The notes beneath the pieces are model-generated. The model saw only the letters and a list, made by a program, of their open reading frames with translations, searched no databases and was not told the DNA's origin. This document shows positions 1 to 7,406 of a DNA stretch of 12,821 bases, one piece after another (the stretch's first letter is position 1; the number at the start of each line of letters is the position of its first letter). Source of the stretch: a virus; the UHGV virus genome UHGV-0294068; one strand, written 5' to 3'. The translations under genes and the position numbers were made by a program.

Positions 1-313
1 CCACAACCTTACAATCCTCGCAAGTGGACATGCCCCAGTTGATCAGCATTGAGATGAATGCGGATTTACCAATACCGTGACCAGAAGCGCGTGCCAGCAT
101 AAGCGGCTGATAGCGCGTCTCTGGATTCTGCAGGTGATCACGTATCTCTCGGAACGCATCAGCCTGCCACTGACGTGGGCCGGTGGCATGTGCCAGTTCA
201 GTCCCCTCTTCCCCCCACGGGAACGCATAGAGAGCATAGCCAAGCGGATCGTGAGTGAACCCTGCAATATCCTCGATCAACTGCTCTTCAGGAGATAACG
301 CTGTATCTGTCAC
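1..313 (-). CDS. Phage terminase large subunit, N-terminal part (gene continues past the window start)
   Basis: Minus-strand frame open from GTG at 313-311 (overlapping the terS stop as GTGA) to the window edge. My translation reads VTDTALSPEEQLIEDIAGFTHDPLGYALYAFPWGEEGTELAHATGPRQWQADAFREIRDHLQNPETRYQPLMLARASGHGIGKSAFISMLINWGMSTCEDCKVV, with a P-loop-like GHGIGKS. Absent from the ORF track because it has no in-window stop; track ORFs 43..267(-) and 77..298(+) are out-of-frame shadows. Confidence 0.85.
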   Translation of the reverse strand, partial: MTDTALSPEEQLIEDIAGFTHDPLGYALYAFPWGEEGTELAHATGPRQWQADAFREIRDHLQNPETRYQPLMLARASGHGIGKSAFISMLINWGMSTCEDCKVV

Positions 314-906
314 TGATTACCATCCTGACGTTCTTTGAGTCGCTTCCTGGCTGCCGCTATGCGATCAGCAATTGTCACATTCACATTAACATCCAGGCGT
401 TCTTTGAACGCGTTGACATCAACATGCTTACCAATCAGCTCAAGGTTCTTCACCTTGTCAGGCCATTTAATTTTTTTGAGGATTGTCTCTATCGAATCCT
501 CGTTCATGTTCATGATGGTCGATGACAGATCAAAGCCACTAAGCGTAGTGCGCCAGATTTTCGGCCACTCACGGATTGGTTTAAGGCTCCCATCGTCGTT
601 GAGGATGTCGATCACGTCCATCTGGTCGATCTCCACCAGGCGCATGAGAACGTAATCAGCACTGACGCGCATTCGTTTGTTGCGCTCCTCCATCAACTCG
701 GCAATCCGTTTTTGAATGCGTTCATCGCGCATCATGACACTGGCTTTAACTGCCGCTGTATTTGGGGAGAATCCTGCGTTAATCGCTGCCTGAGTTTGGT
801 TTTCAGGCGTTTTGATGTATGACTGGCAATAAGCCTCCTGCATTGTTGTTAGTGGCTTAAATTGCGTTGATTTGCGTTTATAGGTTTTAGGTTCAGCAGG
901 CATCAT
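310..906 (-). CDS. Phage terminase small subunit
   Basis: ORF 310..984(-) has the look of a small terminase subunit (KPLTTMQEAYCQSYIKTPENQTQAAINAGFSPNTAAVKASVMMRDERIQKRI). Start placed at tandem ATG 906/903 preceded by GGTGG; the track start at 984 is a TTG lying inside a hairpin. Stop overlaps terL start. Confidence 0.8.
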   Translation of the reverse strand: MMPAEPKTYKRKSTQFKPLTTMQEAYCQSYIKTPENQTQAAINAGFSPNTAAVKASVMMRDERIQKRIAELMEERNKRMRVSADYVLMRLVEIDQMDVIDILNDDGSLKPIREWPKIWRTTLSGFDLSSTIMNMNEDSIETILKKIKWPDKVKNLELIGKHVDVNAFKERLDVNVNVTIADRIAAARKRLKERQDGNQ

Positions 907-948
907 AACCACCGTGGTAATAGTTACCGTTGTGGTAATAGTACCATG

Positions 949-975
949 CAAAATAAAGCCGCCATAGTTGGCGGC
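949..975 (-). terminator. Candidate intrinsic terminator about 45 nt upstream of terS
   Basis: Plus-strand GCCGCCA-tagt-TGGCGGC (958-975) preceded by AAAATAAA; on the minus-strand transcript this is a 7-bp GC stem followed by UUUAUUUUG. Confidence 0.45.
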
Positions 976-1024
976 AGTATTCAAAATCCATCAAATTCAT
1001 CATGCATAATCTACTCGTGACATG

Positions 1025-1372: not shown

Positions 1373-1478
1373 TCCACGCCAGATTGATTAATAACTCCCA
1401 GGCAATATAAACCCGGATACCAGCAGCCAGGCCGAAACCAATCACCATGGCATAAAGCAGAGCGTTGCACTTGTTCAT
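1356..1478 (-). CDS. Putative small membrane peptide (40 aa)
   Basis: ATG at 1478-1476 overlaps the TAA stop of the upstream DUF551 gene by one base. Translation MNKCNALLYAMVIGFGLAAGIRVYIAWELLINLAWSAIRG has one hydrophobic helix. Below the ORF-track size cutoff. Confidence 0.3.
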   Translation of the reverse strand: MNKCNALLYAMVIGFGLAAGIRVYIAWELLINLAWSAIRG

Positions 1479-2047
1479 TACTTCACCTCCTGCGGTGGTT
1501 CCGGTAGCGGCATCCAGTGGGTTGCTTGCTCAATACCATTACCCGGCTTAATCGTTGCATCTCCGCGCCGAAAGGTGCTTCCGGTATAGCGTGCGGAGCA
1601 TATTAGCGGTTCAACCAGAGAGCTATCGAAATTCACCGAAATAAGCACGTTCTGGCCCTTTTCAGGCATTCGCTCACTACAGCTTATCCAACCATCCGGA
1701 GTTACCGGAGTTGGTCCATCGAATTCGGGCATGTCAGGACCTTTTCTGATAGCTTTAGCCAGCTCCAGCGGGTCATCGTAAAGCCAGTCGCCAGTTTGTG
1801 GGTGATTTGCTTCTGCAAGCTGCGCAGCCCATTCAAGACCATCTTTTTGACCTTGGAGATAATCAAGCGGCAACTCTTCATGATTACTTGCAGGTTCTGC
1901 ACTATCAGCTTCGCGCCGCTTCTGTAGCTCTGCTGCCATCGCTCTCACGACTTCAACTGGTGCCCTTGCAGCAAACTCTATGTTGGTGATCAGCTCATTA
2001 AGATATTGCTCGCTGGGATACTGTTTCTTATCGGTTATAGTGGTCAT
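1478..2047 (-). CDS. DUF551-like phage protein
   Basis: 189 aa; C-terminal THWMPLPEPP motif typical of DUF551; ATG overlaps the upstream stop (ATGA); AAGGAA RBS. Confidence 0.65.
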   Translation of the reverse strand: MTTITDKKQYPSEQYLNELITNIEFAARAPVEVVRAMAAELQKRREADSAEPASNHEELPLDYLQGQKDGLEWAAQLAEANHPQTGDWLYDDPLELAKAIRKGPDMPEFDGPTPVTPDGWISCSERMPEKGQNVLISVNFDSSLVEPLICSARYTGSTFRRGDATIKPGNGIEQATHWMPLPEPPQEVK

Positions 2048-2559
2048 GCTGCGTTTCCTTCTTTCTTATTAACAATTACACCGTCATATATTTCATTAAG
2101 GTGTCCTCTTAGCTCCATGCGCCTTAATGCAGATAACATGTAATCGCATTCAACCTGCTTATTCCCAGTAAATGGCTTATCGTCAGGATTACCCCAACAG
2201 CAATTACCCCTGGGCCATCCATGTACTTTCCGTACTCTTCCGTTAACAACGTGAAGTAATCCCCAGCCGGGAGGTAAATCCTCAACTGAAATAATTTCCG
2301 GCTCACTAATAAAGAATCGCCAGTCGCCCATGCCAAGTGAGGGATTTTTACGGAAACGCTTTTTTCTATCTGCCAACAAGTCAGCACGAGAACACTTCGC
2401 CTCTATCAGGCATGATGCTGAATTTCTGAATCCCATAGCATCTGGCTGTTCTCCGGTACTGGTTACAGCAACAAAGCGGTCATGAAAGCAAACCTTGAAC
2501 CCGTTGCGCTTAAGGAACTTGTACGCAATCTGACAGAGTTCGTGGTGTGTTAACGCCAT
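2044..2559 (-). CDS. Putative PD-(D/E)XK-fold nuclease (MmcB-like)
   Basis: Start taken at ATG 2559 (MALTHHELCQ...) after a GGAAAGGAAAG RBS; D...EAK arrangement (PDAMGF...CLIEAKCS) fits a PD-(D/E)XK active site. Family name is from memory only. Confidence 0.5.
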   Translation of the reverse strand: MALTHHELCQIAYKFLKRNGFKVCFHDRFVAVTSTGEQPDAMGFRNSASCLIEAKCSRADLLADRKKRFRKNPSLGMGDWRFFISEPEIISVEDLPPGWGLLHVVNGRVRKVHGWPRGNCCWGNPDDKPFTGNKQVECDYMLSALRRMELRGHLNEIYDGVIVNKKEGNAA

Positions 2560-2595
2560 ATCACTTTCCTTTCCCATGTTGTCATGTGTTAGTCC

Positions 2596-2859
2596 TTATC
2601 CTGCTGTGCTTTCAACTGATGAGGGGAATAAAATCTTTTCATCAAATCCGGCATTCATATCATGGACAGCAACACACCAATCCATCGACGAACGATTATC
2701 AAGAGCCTCCATGATTTCATCCATGCGGCGCAGGTCATACAGGTAAATGCTTTTATCGCCAATGGTGTAAAAACCAATTTTTTTCGGTGATGGGCAGCGA
2801 TCAAGAACGTTCTGTAATTCGCTCAACCATGCCTGTTCCTTTTTTGTCAAAGTTGCCAT
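2596..2859 (-). CDS. Hypothetical protein (87 aa)
   Basis: ATG at 2859 preceded by AAGGAGAG; packed tightly between neighbouring minus-strand genes. Confidence 0.5.
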   Translation of the reverse strand: MATLTKKEQAWLSELQNVLDRCPSPKKIGFYTIGDKSIYLYDLRRMDEIMEALDNRSSMDWCVAVHDMNAGFDEKILFPSSVESTAG

Positions 2860-2860
2860 A

Positions 2861-3379
2861 TCACTCTCCTTTGATGCGAATGCCAGCGACGCGGGAATCA
2901 TTCCATCGCTTTACTTCTTCACGAATTACGTCAATGCATTCTTTCGAATCCATTAGGTAATCTTCATCAAAAAGACGTTCCTGTTCGTTTTCTATCGCAA
3001 CAATGATTGCTTCAACTAACTTTTGTGCCTGAGAACCACTTTCTAACTCTGCTATGCGCTTACTTCCATCCGCGATTACTCCCTCGTAATACTCACGCTG
3101 CTCGTTGAGTTTTAATTTTGCTGCCTCCAGTTCGTCCAGTAGTGCAATCACATCAGGGTCACTGTCATCAACTACTGTTACGCGTGATTTTTCATAATGC
3201 TCGTCGGCAAGTGTGCGACCAATTTTGAAATCTCCATCACCACCATAACCGGAGCAGGCATAAGTGACATGTGCTCCAGATATACGCTGTATTGACATTT
3301 CCTCGCCACAAACAGAGCATTCAGGTACTGGCTTAGGTGAATAACGTTCCCGTAGCGCCTGATAATCAATCTCGCTCAC
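2861..3379 (-). CDS. Hypothetical protein with N-terminal zinc-ribbon (CSVCG...YAC) and acidic central region (ELEAAKLKLNEQREYYE), possibly Ea22-like
   Basis: GTG start at 3379 six nt after a strong AAGGAGG RBS; 172 aa. Confidence 0.55.
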   Translation of the reverse strand: MSEIDYQALRERYSPKPVPECSVCGEEMSIQRISGAHVTYACSGYGGDGDFKIGRTLADEHYEKSRVTVVDDSDPDVIALLDELEAAKLKLNEQREYYEGVIADGSKRIAELESGSQAQKLVEAIIVAIENEQERLFDEDYLMDSKECIDVIREEVKRWNDSRVAGIRIKGE

Positions 3380-3860
3380 TGGTTGCCTCCTTCATAAAAA
3401 TAATCCAGTGGGTCTTGTCACCCTTTCCTGTTCGTTGACCGATAACAGGCTTTCTGTCGGTCAGTGCCAATATCTGGCGAACAGGTATTTGCGTTTCATT
3501 CCATTTAAAAATCAGAACGCCGTATGGCCACAACACACGAAAGGCTTCTTTGAATCCCTGCCGTAAATCATCACGCCAGGTATCTTTATTCAGCCGTCCA
3601 TATTTCTTTCCCATCCGAGCGTTATCACCAACACGCTCAAGATGCGGAGGGTCGAATACAACCATCGAAAAGGATGCGTCTGCAAATGGTAGTGCACGAA
3701 AATCAGCTATCAGGTCAGGACTGATAATCAGGCGTCGTCCATCACACAATGTGTGCTCTTCCTTTCTGATATCGCTAAATATCGCCCGGTCGTCATTCTT
3801 ATCGAACCAGAACATGCGACTGCCACAGCACATGTCGAGGATTGCTGCATGTCCAGTCAC
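3366..3860 (-). CDS. Small SAM-dependent DNA methyltransferase (orphan)
   Basis: Motif I-like DMCCGSRMF followed about 60 aa later by motif IV-like VVFDPPH. Start taken at GTG 3860 (AGGAGG 6 nt upstream, GTGA overlap with upstream stop); track start ATG 3893 is the alternative. No specificity domain evident. Confidence 0.65.
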   Translation of the reverse strand: MTGHAAILDMCCGSRMFWFDKNDDRAIFSDIRKEEHTLCDGRRLIISPDLIADFRALPFADASFSMVVFDPPHLERVGDNARMGKKYGRLNKDTWRDDLRQGFKEAFRVLWPYGVLIFKWNETQIPVRQILALTDRKPVIGQRTGKGDKTHWIIFMKEATSERD

Positions 3861-4384
3861 TGCTTGCCTCCTTTGCGAATCTGTTCCGCCCATTCTTCAA
3901 GGGATTTCTCCGCATATTCACCAGACAGGCCATCAATCGGATGCGCTTCATTAACCAACTCTTCTTTCGCTGACAAAATCATGCGTGTAACGTCGAAAAC
4001 TTCATGCAAAGACTTATTGATAAATCCGTGATTGAACGCAGCAGCAAGACGGCTGGCGGTATAGTTAATCCCCTCGTTGCGTGCTTCCGCACGAATTTCA
4101 GCCAGAAAAGCATCGGTAGCTGGGGTTTCTGGCATACAGTCAGCAGCGTCGAAATACTCTTCACTTTTGTCATCCCAAATCCAGCAATCATCTTTGATGA
4201 ACTTGTTCAGCCCTGCATTCTCCGCTGCCAGCGCATTAGCACGCACCAGTTGCACTTCCAGTTGCGTTGCCAAATCGCTGATCAGCTTTGCCACACTACG
4301 CATATCAACGGCACCACATTCTGCTTTCAGTTCCGAAGCCATCTCATGCCCGGCGGCAACTAACCCTTTGATATTACTTTCCAT
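3857..4384 (-). CDS. Hypothetical phage protein (175 aa)
   Basis: ATG 4384 with GAGGG RBS; acidic, helical-looking; no motif I recognise. Confidence 0.5.
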   Translation of the reverse strand: MESNIKGLVAAGHEMASELKAECGAVDMRSVAKLISDLATQLEVQLVRANALAAENAGLNKFIKDDCWIWDDKSEEYFDAADCMPETPATDAFLAEIRAEARNEGINYTASRLAAAFNHGFINKSLHEVFDVTRMILSAKEELVNEAHPIDGLSGEYAEKSLEEWAEQIRKGGKQ

Positions 4385-4430
4385 CTTTACCCTCGCTTAT
4401 CCACATAACTTATTGATTACATTGATAACT

Positions 4431-4463
4431 AAAAAGATCGTCGATTCATGCCGATCTATTTTT
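4431..4463 (-). terminator. Candidate intrinsic terminator at the 3' end of the HNH gene
   Basis: Plus-strand AAAAAGATCG-tcgattcatgc-CGATCTATTTTT; minus-strand RNA forms a stem followed by CUUUUU. Large loop, so weak call. Confidence 0.3.
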
Positions 4464-5054
4464 CATCAGTGATTCATAAAACTTTTGCCACTTATGCCGA
4501 CCGAAATTAGCCTTCGAGTTACAGCTCGAACAAAGGCAAATAAGGTTCTCCTGACGACAGTCTTGCTTGTCGTAATTGATGTGATGAGTTGTTAGCCTTT
4601 TGTCTGTTCCATCACAACCTGGGTTCTGACAAGTAAAACCATCTCGCTCAATAACCCTCTTGCTCGTTTCTCGGAAATCCCACGGATACGGCAATCTCGA
4701 TAATCCACCAGACCAGTTTGGATTTCCTTCCCCCTTCATCAGAGAAGAACGCATTATGTTGGAACACTGTTTCGAGCAGCATTTATGACGCTTCTCATGA
4801 CTCAAGAAAACGGAGAACGAAGATCCGCATACGCAGCATATTTTTAATACTCGCTTTAGTTCCCGATTTACCGTCTTGCCTCGCTGTGAAATTCCTACAC
4901 ACTGAAGTGAGCAGAACCTTGAAGATGAGTTGGCTCGCTTAACCTGATATTGCCTGCCACATACGGAGCAAACCTTTTCGATTTTCCCACCCTTCCAATT
5001 CGGGTTTTTATCACCGGATACAATCAATCCCGCAGCATTGGGCTTCTCGCTCAT
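4446..5054 (-). CDS. HNH endonuclease with duplicated zinc-binding modules
   Basis: HHINYDKQDCRQENLICLCSSCNSKAN HNH motif at the C-terminus; two NPNWKGG/NPNWSGG plus Cys-pair modules; ATG overlaps upstream stop (ATGA). Confidence 0.75.
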   Translation of the reverse strand: MSEKPNAAGLIVSGDKNPNWKGGKIEKVCSVCGRQYQVKRANSSSRFCSLQCVGISQRGKTVNRELKRVLKICCVCGSSFSVFLSHEKRHKCCSKQCSNIMRSSLMKGEGNPNWSGGLSRLPYPWDFRETSKRVIERDGFTCQNPGCDGTDKRLTTHHINYDKQDCRQENLICLCSSCNSKANFGRHKWQKFYESLMKNRSA

Positions 5055-5404
5055 AGTTCCTCAACCTCCCATCCACCACCGAGCTTTTTAGGTTTTGGAT
5101 AAGCAACCTGAAAGACAAACGGATAGCTGTCTGCCGCAACCTTCATCTTGACTCTCGCATCGTCAGTAAAGACTGACTTACTTCCCTTAACGTCCACCAT
5201 CACCAACTGCCCGTCAGCCAACATCACGGCAAAATCTACAGTCAGGAAGCAGTTGTCAGCTAACCGCAGCTTGATACCCTCGAATCGATACCAGGCGATT
5301 TCCCCTGCACGTTTACGCAGCTCAAGGTGCTGGCAATACGCAGATTCTGTTTTGTTCATCTGGCCTGTTTTGAGTCGACCAAGAGCCTGTATCTGTTTTC
5401 TCAT
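5051..5404 (-). CDS. DUF1064-family phage protein
   Basis: 117 aa; AGEI...DF...DG...VDVKG...YP pattern matches DUF1064 as I remember it; AGGGG RBS before ATG 5404. Confidence 0.6.
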   Translation of the reverse strand: MRKQIQALGRLKTGQMNKTESAYCQHLELRKRAGEIAWYRFEGIKLRLADNCFLTVDFAVMLADGQLVMVDVKGSKSVFTDDARVKMKVAADSYPFVFQVAYPKPKKLGGGWEVEEL

Positions 5405-5407
5405 GAT

Positions 5408-5422
5408 TTACCCCTGAGGTAA
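5408..5422. promoter_or_regulatory. Operator-like palindrome TTACC-cctga-GGTAA overlapping the RBS of the first nin-block gene
   Basis: One of eight copies of the TTACC-N5-GGTAA motif in the window. Confidence 0.55.
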
Positions 5423-5463
5423 TTAAAAACCACATAAGACACGAAATCAATAGATCTTAGAAC

Positions 5464-5491
5464 ATTTTATTACCTAACAGGTAATTATCAA
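5464..5491 (-). promoter_or_regulatory. Candidate sigma70 promoter for the nin-like operon with an operator filling the spacer
   Basis: Minus strand TTGATA (5491-5486), 16-nt spacer, TAAAAT (5469-5464); the 17-bp palindrome ATTACCTAACAGGTAAT (5469-5485) occupies the spacer. Confidence 0.5.
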
Positions 5492-5521
5492 GACGTAAAA
5501 AAATGCGCTATCGCGCTGGTA

Positions 5522-7391: not shown

Positions 7392-7406
7392 TTACCTTTG
7401 AGGTAC
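7392..7406. promoter_or_regulatory. Operator-like palindrome TTACC-tttga-GGTAc
   Basis: Lies between the Cro-like gene and the next gene, just downstream of a hairpin. Confidence 0.45.

Follow-up and report, generated by a model that had tools for sequence, protein, structure and literature searches.

The 12,821-nucleotide stretch of UHGV virus genome UHGV-0294068 analyzed here (referred to throughout as the window) carries on its minus strand, from position 4384 to position 2044, five consecutive small genes, designated E, D, C, B, and A in the 5' to 3' order of that strand. In the initial annotation these genes were described as a translationally coupled cluster of nuclease-like, methyltransferase and unknown genes of a "nin block," and regarded as moron-like cargo of the sort that often encodes anti-restriction or defence functions. 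The question raised by this locus is, thus, whether the five genes constitute a system that acts jointly or are unrelated genes that share a position in the phage genome. Gene structure, family placement, independent assortment and junction repeats were directly observed, and they evidence that the five genes are no joint system and behave as independently assorting accessory cassettes. On balance, the probable explanation for this 2.3-kb segment is that it consists of five separately exchangeable accessory cassettes, each acting alone, in a hypervariable slot between the replication genes (DnaT-like/O, P, and DUF1064) and a late regulator followed by the terminase.

Support for this conclusion came from the distribution of the genes in other genomes. 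Parts of the segment comprising window positions 1400-5500 were detected in 3,469 of 5,426 complete Escherichia coli genomes, and in none of the 5,426 was 80% or more of it present in one place. Direct blastp of 80 viral loci with a homolog of A revealed D in three of them, plus one fragment, and in three viral loci D was located directly upstream of A. A higher figure (a D-like gene in 18 of the 80 A loci), produced by single-linkage clustering of the neighboring genes, was discarded as a chaining artefact. When 80 loci with a close homolog of D were inspected, A was found in two, E in seven, C in four and B in one, and the commonest neighbors of D were assorted Ead/Ea22/EaE-like genes placed on either side of it (45 of the 80 loci). 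The linkage that the word "cluster" implies is not borne out by these data, as the genes assort independently.

The boundaries between the cassettes contain short repeats that combine the C-terminal codons and stop of the upstream gene, a ribosome-binding site and the start codon of the next gene. Two copies of the repeat named J1, 481 nt apart, bracket the methyltransferase cassette D, and the sequence AAGGAGGCAANCAGTGA has two exact matches in the window, one at each end of D, against 0.01 expected. Likewise, two copies of a second repeat, J2, bracket cassette B as a direct repeat family (D1) with 94% identity and a spacing of 300 nt, and AAAGGARAGTGATATGGC is found at either end of this gene. 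Among 163 related loci, the J1 motif precedes at least five unrelated gene families, and J2 precedes B, A, DUF551 and at least three other unrelated open reading frames (ORFs). In lambdoid phages, cassettes are known to be exchanged at short boundary homologies, and the repeats at the junctions are interpreted here as putative homologies of this type.

The five gene calls of the initial annotation hold, since the ORFs are found at the same coordinates, fall into families and agree with independent calls (Table 1). The series of products of 175, 164, 172, 87, 171, and 189 amino acids (aa) was called independently on human-gut metagenome contigs encoding an identical D, PGAP (Prokaryotic Genome Annotation Pipeline) predicted a methyltransferase gene of 495 bp, the length of D, in a related E. 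coli prophage, and all five products match PHROG families with E-values from 7e-29 to 7e-121. Long antisense ORFs on the plus strand of the block (92-134 aa) gave no PHROG match, a scan of the window against Rfam returned no family, and these ORFs were rejected as genes. Concerning translational coupling, overlapping or abutting ends are seen at four of the five junctions: the GTG start of D overlaps the TGA stop of E as GTGA (4 nt), D and C overlap by 14 nt, a single nucleotide separates the stop of C from the start of B (TGAtATG), and the start of the downstream DUF551 gene, at 2047, lies on the stop of A as ATGA. The exception is the junction between B and A, which is not strictly coupled because 36 nt separate the stop of B from the start of A, and coupling along the whole block can be maintained for every junction but this one. 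The computed isoelectric points divide the products into basic (A, 9.0; D, 8.8) and acidic proteins (E, 4.7; C, 4.6; B, 4.8), and single-sequence searches of the Protein Data Bank (PDB) gave chance-level matches only for all five.

Table 1. Positions of the block genes, their junction repeats and other features of the window (J1 and J2, junction repeats).
Feature	Position	Strand	Description
Gene E	3857-4384	-	ATG start, 175 aa, GAGGG ribosome-binding site upstream; N-terminal helical/coiled-coil region, ETPATDAFLAEIRA motif, eae-type C-terminal domain ending IRKGGKQ
Gene D	3366-3860	-	GTG start, 164 aa, AAGGAGG Shine-Dalgarno ending 7 nt upstream of GTG
Gene C	2861-3379	-	GTG start, 172 aa, AAGGAGG Shine-Dalgarno like that of D; N-terminal Ead/Ea22 domain, coiled-coil segment, variable C-terminal domain
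Gene B	2596-2859	-	ATG start, 87 aa
Gene A	2044-2559	-	ATG start, 171 aa, own ribosome-binding site
J1 copy 1	3857-3873	-	AAGGAGGCAAGCAGTGA; Shine-Dalgarno, GTG start of D, stop of E
J1 copy 2	3376-3392	-	AAGGAGGCAACCAGTGA; Shine-Dalgarno, GTG start of C
J2 copy 1	2855-2872	-	AAAGGAGAGTGATATGGC; Shine-Dalgarno, stop of C, ATG start of B
J2 copy 2	2555-2572	-	AAAGGAAAGTGATATGGC; Shine-Dalgarno, ATG start of A
Promoter-like site	5464-5491	-	TTGATA, 16-nt spacer, TAAAAT; upstream of DUF1064; consensus match
TTACC-N5-GGTAA dyad copies	906-920, 924-938, 5408-5422, 5470-5484, 7392-7406, 7729-7743, 7777-7791, 8489-8503, 8551-8565		
HNH endonuclease (upstream flank)	4446-5054	-	202 aa, 16 Cys; phrog_1271 E-value 3.7e-23, weak Pfam HNH matches
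DUF551 (downstream flank)	1478-2047	-	PF04448 E-value 2.4e-22
Small terminase ORF	310-984	-	TTG start at 984, 224 aa
phrog_868 "transcriptional activator"	11346-11645	+	
Second methyltransferase	11626-12288	+	220 aa, ADPPW motif; phrog_359 "DNA methyltransferase" E-value 5e-120

The presence of a methyltransferase (D) and a PD-(D/E)XK protein (A) within 1.3 kb of one operon, together with the three viral loci that have D directly upstream of A, would suit a phage-borne pair of the restriction-modification or exclusion type, in which A cuts unmodified incoming DNA and D protects the prophage and its host. However, two unrelated genes lie between D and A in the block, and the association is not kept across lineages, the two genes occurring together in 3/80 of the A loci and 2/80 of the D loci. 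In addition, homologs of A are found in phages of ~150-160 kb and the D family extends to phages of Gram-positive bacteria, none of the eight D-family phage regions with inspected annotation contains a nuclease of the kind of A (the only nuclease being an HNH endonuclease, in phage A2), and the consensus scan provided no autonomous promoter for the pair. No conserved nuclease partner of D was found. The interpretation of D and A as a restriction-modification pair was rejected on all these grounds, and we hold it to be highly improbable.

With regard to expression, a consensus scan detected no minus-strand promoter-like site between 2044 and 4384 and no convincing terminator in the block, where a single weak match is situated inside a gene. 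As the genes overlap or nearly abut and have no internal promoter or convincing terminator, they are not morons in the strict sense of the term used in the initial annotation. According to the same scan, the sole promoter-like match able to drive a unit containing the block is the one upstream of DUF1064, and a TTACC-N5-GGTAA dyad occupies its spacer. The window contains nine copies of this 15-bp dyad (0.17 expected), all of them between genes: one pair separates the cro-like gene from the repressor gene, a second is placed downstream of the latter, a single copy is found near 7392, and two further pairs are situated upstream of DUF1064 and of the small terminase gene, respectively. In nine relatives the half-sites and the spacings of the pairs (18, 48, and 62 bp) are kept and the central bases vary. 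Based on this distribution, the dyad looks like an operator common to the immunity region and the downstream operons. If it is the operator of the repressor, the unit containing the block would be shut off in the lysogen, and in that case functions in the lytic cycle fit better than a defence expressed by the lysogen. The block genes are probably transcribed as one polycistronic unit, with expression early in the lytic cycle and none in the lysogen.

Four of the five proteins could be placed in families, so that the statement that none could be assigned with certainty was too pessimistic. The PD-(D/E)XK-like character initially attributed to A is supported by both motif and predicted fold, and A can best be regarded as an MmcB-like protein with a PD-(D/E)XK nuclease fold that is phage-borne and divergent, its relation to MmcB being at the level of fold and signature only. 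The AlphaFold2 model of A (predicted local distance difference test, pLDDT, of 82) has the core alpha-beta-beta-beta-alpha-beta nuclease fold and positions the putative catalytic D...(D/E)-x-K where strand 2 begins and strand 3 ends. Of the putative catalytic residues (E37, D40, and E53-x-K55), D40 and E53-x-K55 are invariant in 29 close homologs; among 45 diverse members D40 is again invariant and E37, E53, and K55 are conserved in at least 90%. A profile of the family matched the PDB structure 3dnx (SPO1766) with an E-value of 0.0013 and a common signature (...D..G...IECK-SR-DF-AD), and A matched predicted viral structures named "MmcB-like DNA repair protein" with E-values of 3.6e-7 to 5e-5. 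A Foldseek search of the PDB with the model returned non-significant matches only, nearly all of them endonucleases. A gave no Pfam match at E<=0.1, PF06319 included, and among its 45 relatives PF06319 was matched by five (best E-value 0.0027) and Hjc by eight. The family comprises 2,553 clusters at 50% identity and has no Pfam model; its members occur in Shiga toxin-encoding (Stx) and other temperate phages and also in ~150-160 kb genomes of Salmonella, Dickeya, and Vibrio phages, nearly all annotated as hypothetical or with spurious-looking names. Phage Lys8385Vzw encodes a protein with 100% identity to A. In Caulobacter, protection against mitomycin C is conferred by MmcB, a PD-(D/E)XK endonuclease induced in the SOS response (PMC9578287). 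A differs from it in that it is phage-borne and located in an early operon, whereas MmcB is encoded by a chromosomal SOS gene; identity to 3dnx is 23%, PF06319 does not match A, and no role in crosslink repair is implied for this protein.

Protein E is, as judged from its alignments, a member of the P22 EaE family and a distant relative of Oad2. It matched phrog_614 (E-value 3e-61) and, in tblastn, the "eae-like protein" of phiV10 at 78% over the full length, P22 Eae at 42% (residues 82-172) and epsilon15 at 43%; the full-length alignment with P22 Eae gave 34% identity. Oad2 is gp27 of phage HK446, a direct inhibitor of the P2 OLD tRNase that was related to P22 EaE by its authors (bioRxiv 10.64898/2026.07.10.737580). 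E and Oad2 are 27% identical in a pairwise comparison (E-value 6e-9) and 36% in a three-way alignment, and both have in common with P22 Eae an invariant ETPATDAFLAE-RA motif and a Q-RKG tail. The likeness between E and Oad2 extends to their length (175 aa each), to an LAAENAG coiled-coil segment and to the Q-RKGG form of the C-terminal tail; unlike Oad2, E contains a segment of ~45 aa that P22 Eae has as well.

Protein C carries at residues 2-87 the Ead/Ea22 domain (Pfam PF13935, E-value 4.9e-25, 89.2 bits vs a cut-off of 27). Its residues 92-114 are 91% identical to lambda Ea22, the similarity being limited to this 22-aa coiled-coil stretch, and no PDB sequence matched C at E<=10, the Ea22 C-terminal domain solved by nuclear magnetic resonance included. 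Lambda Ea22 is a tetrameric pro-lysogenic protein (PMC10834534). The zinc ribbon that had been attributed to C corresponds to a CxxC...H...C patch present in close variants only (at least 63% identical overall, with a near-identical N-terminal region); in three more distant Ead/Ea22-like relatives the patch is replaced by unrelated sequence, and the assignment was abandoned as a feature of the family, a metal site specific to this variant being conceivable. Within the 367 positions of phrog_250, residues 1-65 of E align at 1-66 and residues 1-172 of C at 72-240. E and C resemble the opposite ends of a single longer Ea22-like protein, between which the eae domain and the cassette of the methyltransferase now lie, and this match across both proteins hints that shuffling may also take place below the level of the gene.

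Protein B matched phrog_1714 over its full length (E-value 2e-50). Its family consists of 142 database clusters, every one of them annotated as hypothetical and lacking a Pfam domain, with homologs in temperate P22-like phages and in Salmonella and Klebsiella phages of 55-62 kb, and B matched no PDB sequence at E<=10. By these comparisons, B is a conserved protein of a small enterobacterial/phage family for which no annotation predicts a function.

The resemblance of E to Oad2 leads to the alternative of a coherent counter-defence island kept together by selection, in which D would modify DNA, E, C, and B would bind and inhibit immune proteins and A would degrade host or signaling nucleic acids. 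It agrees with the direct inhibition of P2 OLD by a relative of EaE, and modular loci of this type were called anti-immunity gene reservoirs by the authors of the Oad2 study (bioRxiv 10.64898/2026.07.10.737580). The small size and acidity of E, C, and B, the position of D-family methyltransferases among Ead/Ea22/EaE-like genes in the 45 loci mentioned above, and a homolog of D near an annotated "acr candidate" in Porphyromonas phages point in the same direction. Yet the partner genes vary from phage to phage, the role studied for lambda Ea22 is pro-lysogenic and not that of a defence inhibitor, anti-defence activity has been shown for no close homolog, and E, C, B, and A match no model of PADLOC, a library of defence, not anti-defence, proteins. 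An island of this kind appears unlikely to us. A low probability is also given to a second possibility, that the slot is one for the exchange of counter-defence genes, in which E (and perhaps B or C) would inhibit an immune nuclease of the OLD/ABC-ATPase-TOPRIM type, D, devoid of a recognition domain and conserved at 50% identity or more from enterobacterial phages to those of Gram-positive bacteria and Bacteroidetes, would protect broadly against restriction owing to a relaxed specificity, and the junctions would serve as recombination handles. Thus, the anti-restriction or defence role put forward initially is plausible for D, through protection of DNA, and for E, as a member of the EaE family related to Oad2; it does not extend to the block as a joint entity.

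Regarding D, its description as a small orphan methyltransferase is consistent with the PADLOC and motif matches and with the lack of a conserved nuclease partner; D is most likely a DNA-acting, orphan, minimal class I S-adenosylmethionine (SAM)-dependent amino-methyltransferase. It has motif I (ILDMCCGS) followed by motif IV (DPPH), and no target-recognition domain was found in it, as its 164 aa are filled by a Rossmann-type core and the alignment contains no variable domain. The matches obtained were MTase_II (E-value 5.8e-72) and oMTase (4.5e-49) in PADLOC and the "DNA methyltransferase" family phrog_954 in PHROG (2.7e-87), and a scan of NCBIfam gave no match. Homologs with 43-62% identity (eight sequences) are present in phages of Listeria, Streptococcus, Lactobacillus, Gordonia, Bacteroides, Porphyromonas, Vibrio, and Helicobacter, and residues D9, G13, D30, D53, and D70-P-P-H73 are invariant across the phages of these eight genera; motifs I and IV are likewise invariant in 13 sequences including enterobacteria. 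The family thereby covers Proteobacteria (including Helicobacter), Firmicutes, Actinobacteria, and Bacteroidetes, with its genes in the early or replication-associated part of the genome. D shares with the small methyltransferases of the Listeria phage A118 type the motif order, a length of ~155-170 aa and the lack of a recognition domain, and it is 52-53% identical to A118 gp50 over ~96% of its length. No report on the specificity of this 164-aa family was found in the literature. A likeness of D to M.EcoGIX was considered and proved wrong; M.EcoGIX is plasmid-borne and acts on single-stranded DNA.

Some enterobacterial members of the D family continue at the C-terminus for another ~85 aa, an extension that D lacks. 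The extension (...RIVELESLLL...HHQRRLKHHINRMW...) is conserved in many enterobacterial members, among them three proteins of 248-251 aa and one of 279 aa. In one record of the family the methyltransferase is fused by read-through to an Ead/EaE-like protein at the junction repeat. D-family genes are often found beside further methyltransferases, as in Gordonia phage Bosnia (gp64/gp65), the Bacteroides LoVEphage, with three, and a Porphyromonas phage, with two; in the latter the pair adjoins the annotated "acr candidate."

In the explanation that we favor, the cassettes would swap between phages by recombination at the Shine-Dalgarno/stop/start junctions and each product would contribute a function of its own. 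D would methylate replicating phage DNA, most likely producing N4-methylcytosine (m4C) and less likely N6-methyladenine (m6A), so that the progeny would escape host restriction. A may be a Mg-dependent endonuclease, probably active on damaged or branched DNA. E and C, as acidic coiled-coil proteins, are probably binders of host proteins, with E as a possible inhibitor of an immune nuclease of the host, as its relative Oad2 is of OLD, and B, an acidic 87-aa protein, would act with some partner.

Several points weigh against this explanation. The biochemical activities of all five proteins and the timing of their expression are predictions, and expression limited to the lytic cycle was deduced from consensus matches alone. 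Several metagenome contigs have the five genes in exactly this order, although they may represent only one common prophage lineage. The function of Oad2 is not simply transferable to E, since the identity between them is only 27-36% and a homolog of Oad2 with 54% identity is inactive against OLD, the published specificity being narrow (bioRxiv 10.64898/2026.07.10.737580). As for D, the protein itself reaches no Pfam threshold for a DNA methylase and obtains sub-threshold matches to the generic Methyltransf_11 and Methyltransf_25 only, its NCBI/RefSeq name is just "class I SAM-dependent methyltransferase," and its AlphaFold2 model, built on a shallow alignment (at least 71% identity), had a pLDDT of 55 and was judged unusable.

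These generic Pfam matches and the RefSeq name of D, along with the absence of a recognition domain and a weak similarity, in a profile search, to 2ift, the structure of the RsmD-like HI0767 (E-value 0.49), would be in line with a methyltransferase that acts on RNA, like the small DPPF enzyme RsmD on rRNA, or on a protein or a small molecule, and in that event the anti-restriction reading fails. We consider such a substrate quite unlikely. The invariant DPPH is typical of exocyclic-amino methylation on nucleic-acid bases, the strong PADLOC matches are to the "Type II methyltransferase" and "orphan methyltransferase" models, and in Pfam, where Methyltransf_11 was matched by 13/13 members of the family, N6_N4_Mtase was matched by 4/13 (best E-value 2.8e-4). 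Furthermore, the gene is located in the early or replication-associated part of the genome in phages of all four phyla. The depositors of two homologs also point to DNA, A118 gp50 carrying the note "methylates cytosine residues in DNA" and the IPP22 homolog the name "N-4 cytosine methyltransferase M.NgoMXV." D may be linked to this Neisseria enzyme, a lead provided by annotation. M.NgoMXV and its homologs were described as unusual gamma-class enzymes that make m4C (PMC3874165).

Turning to the surroundings of the block, the window belongs to a temperate enterobacterial phage, an E. coli prophage organized like phiV10 and TL-2011b. The gene order on the minus strand is cro-like, a small ORF, DnaT-like/O, P, DUF1064, HNH and E-D-C-B-A, followed downstream of A by DUF551, a 40-aa ORF, a phrog_536 regulator and the small terminase subunit. 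The other end of the window encodes a 194-aa helix-turn-helix repressor (7847-8431), a YqaJ-type exonuclease and RecT on the plus strand, and an integrase fragment that is not on the plus strand. Phages EC.W1-9 and TL-2011b and two E. coli prophages have this architecture and these flanks as well, with different cargo. The HNH gene, placed between DUF1064 and E, is absent at the corresponding position in two relatives, one of which has an unannotated gap of 667 bp, and it looks like a separately inserted homing-type gene; its product has weak similarity to the HNH domains of ZorE and IscB. In relatives the small terminase subunit was annotated with 197 aa, equivalent to a start at 903, which falls just downstream of two TTACC-N5-GGTAA dyads, and the 224-aa ORF probably overcalls the gene. 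Near the integrase end, a second methyltransferase, unrelated to D, is preceded by the phrog_868 gene, and a similar DPPW enzyme adjoins D-family genes in 5/80 viral loci.

Altogether, the block is of a familiar kind, a hypervariable slot of temperate phages in which small early genes are shuffled at gene boundaries. This type of region is well known, every one of the genes belongs to a family already catalogued and their order is already present in public metagenomes, so that the view of phage biology is left unchanged unless an unexpected activity appears in experiments. Its value lies in a short list of candidates that includes a protein of the EaE family, for which a first function, the inhibition of OLD, was reported only very recently, a family of 164-aa methyltransferases with high conservation from one bacterial phylum to another, and a large phage family of MmcB-like nuclease-fold proteins (~2,500 clusters at 50% identity) without a Pfam family.

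Finally, the block can be compared with two known regions of lambdoid phages. Like the lambda nin region (NinB/Orf, NinG/Rap, RusA and others), it is placed after P and before the late functions and contains small, tightly packed, non-essential-looking genes. In contrast to that region, neither its genes nor its flanks match a Nin family: a Pfam scan of the five proteins and five more of the same operon at E<=0.1 detected none, so that 0/5 of the block genes fit the content of the proposed "nin block" and the lambda Nin reading was rejected. Since the homology of all members to lambda Nin proteins that could have explained the block by housekeeping roles was looked for in this way and not found, the idea of defence or anti-restriction survives, weakened and gene by gene. 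Q and the lysis cassette are also absent at the block, where the genes run straight into the regulator and the terminase. A closer parallel in content is provided by the "ea" regions of P22 and lambda (eae, ead, and ea22; exo-xis-type), to whose genes C and E are homologous and which likewise consist of small, packed early-operon genes in mosaic arrangement. Unlike these regions, the block belongs to a rightward unit, placed after the replication genes and ahead of the terminase, and not to the interval between int/xis and the recombination genes, the C-terminal domain of C differs from that of lambda Ea22, and the ea-type genes are interspersed with a methyltransferase gene and a nuclease-fold gene.

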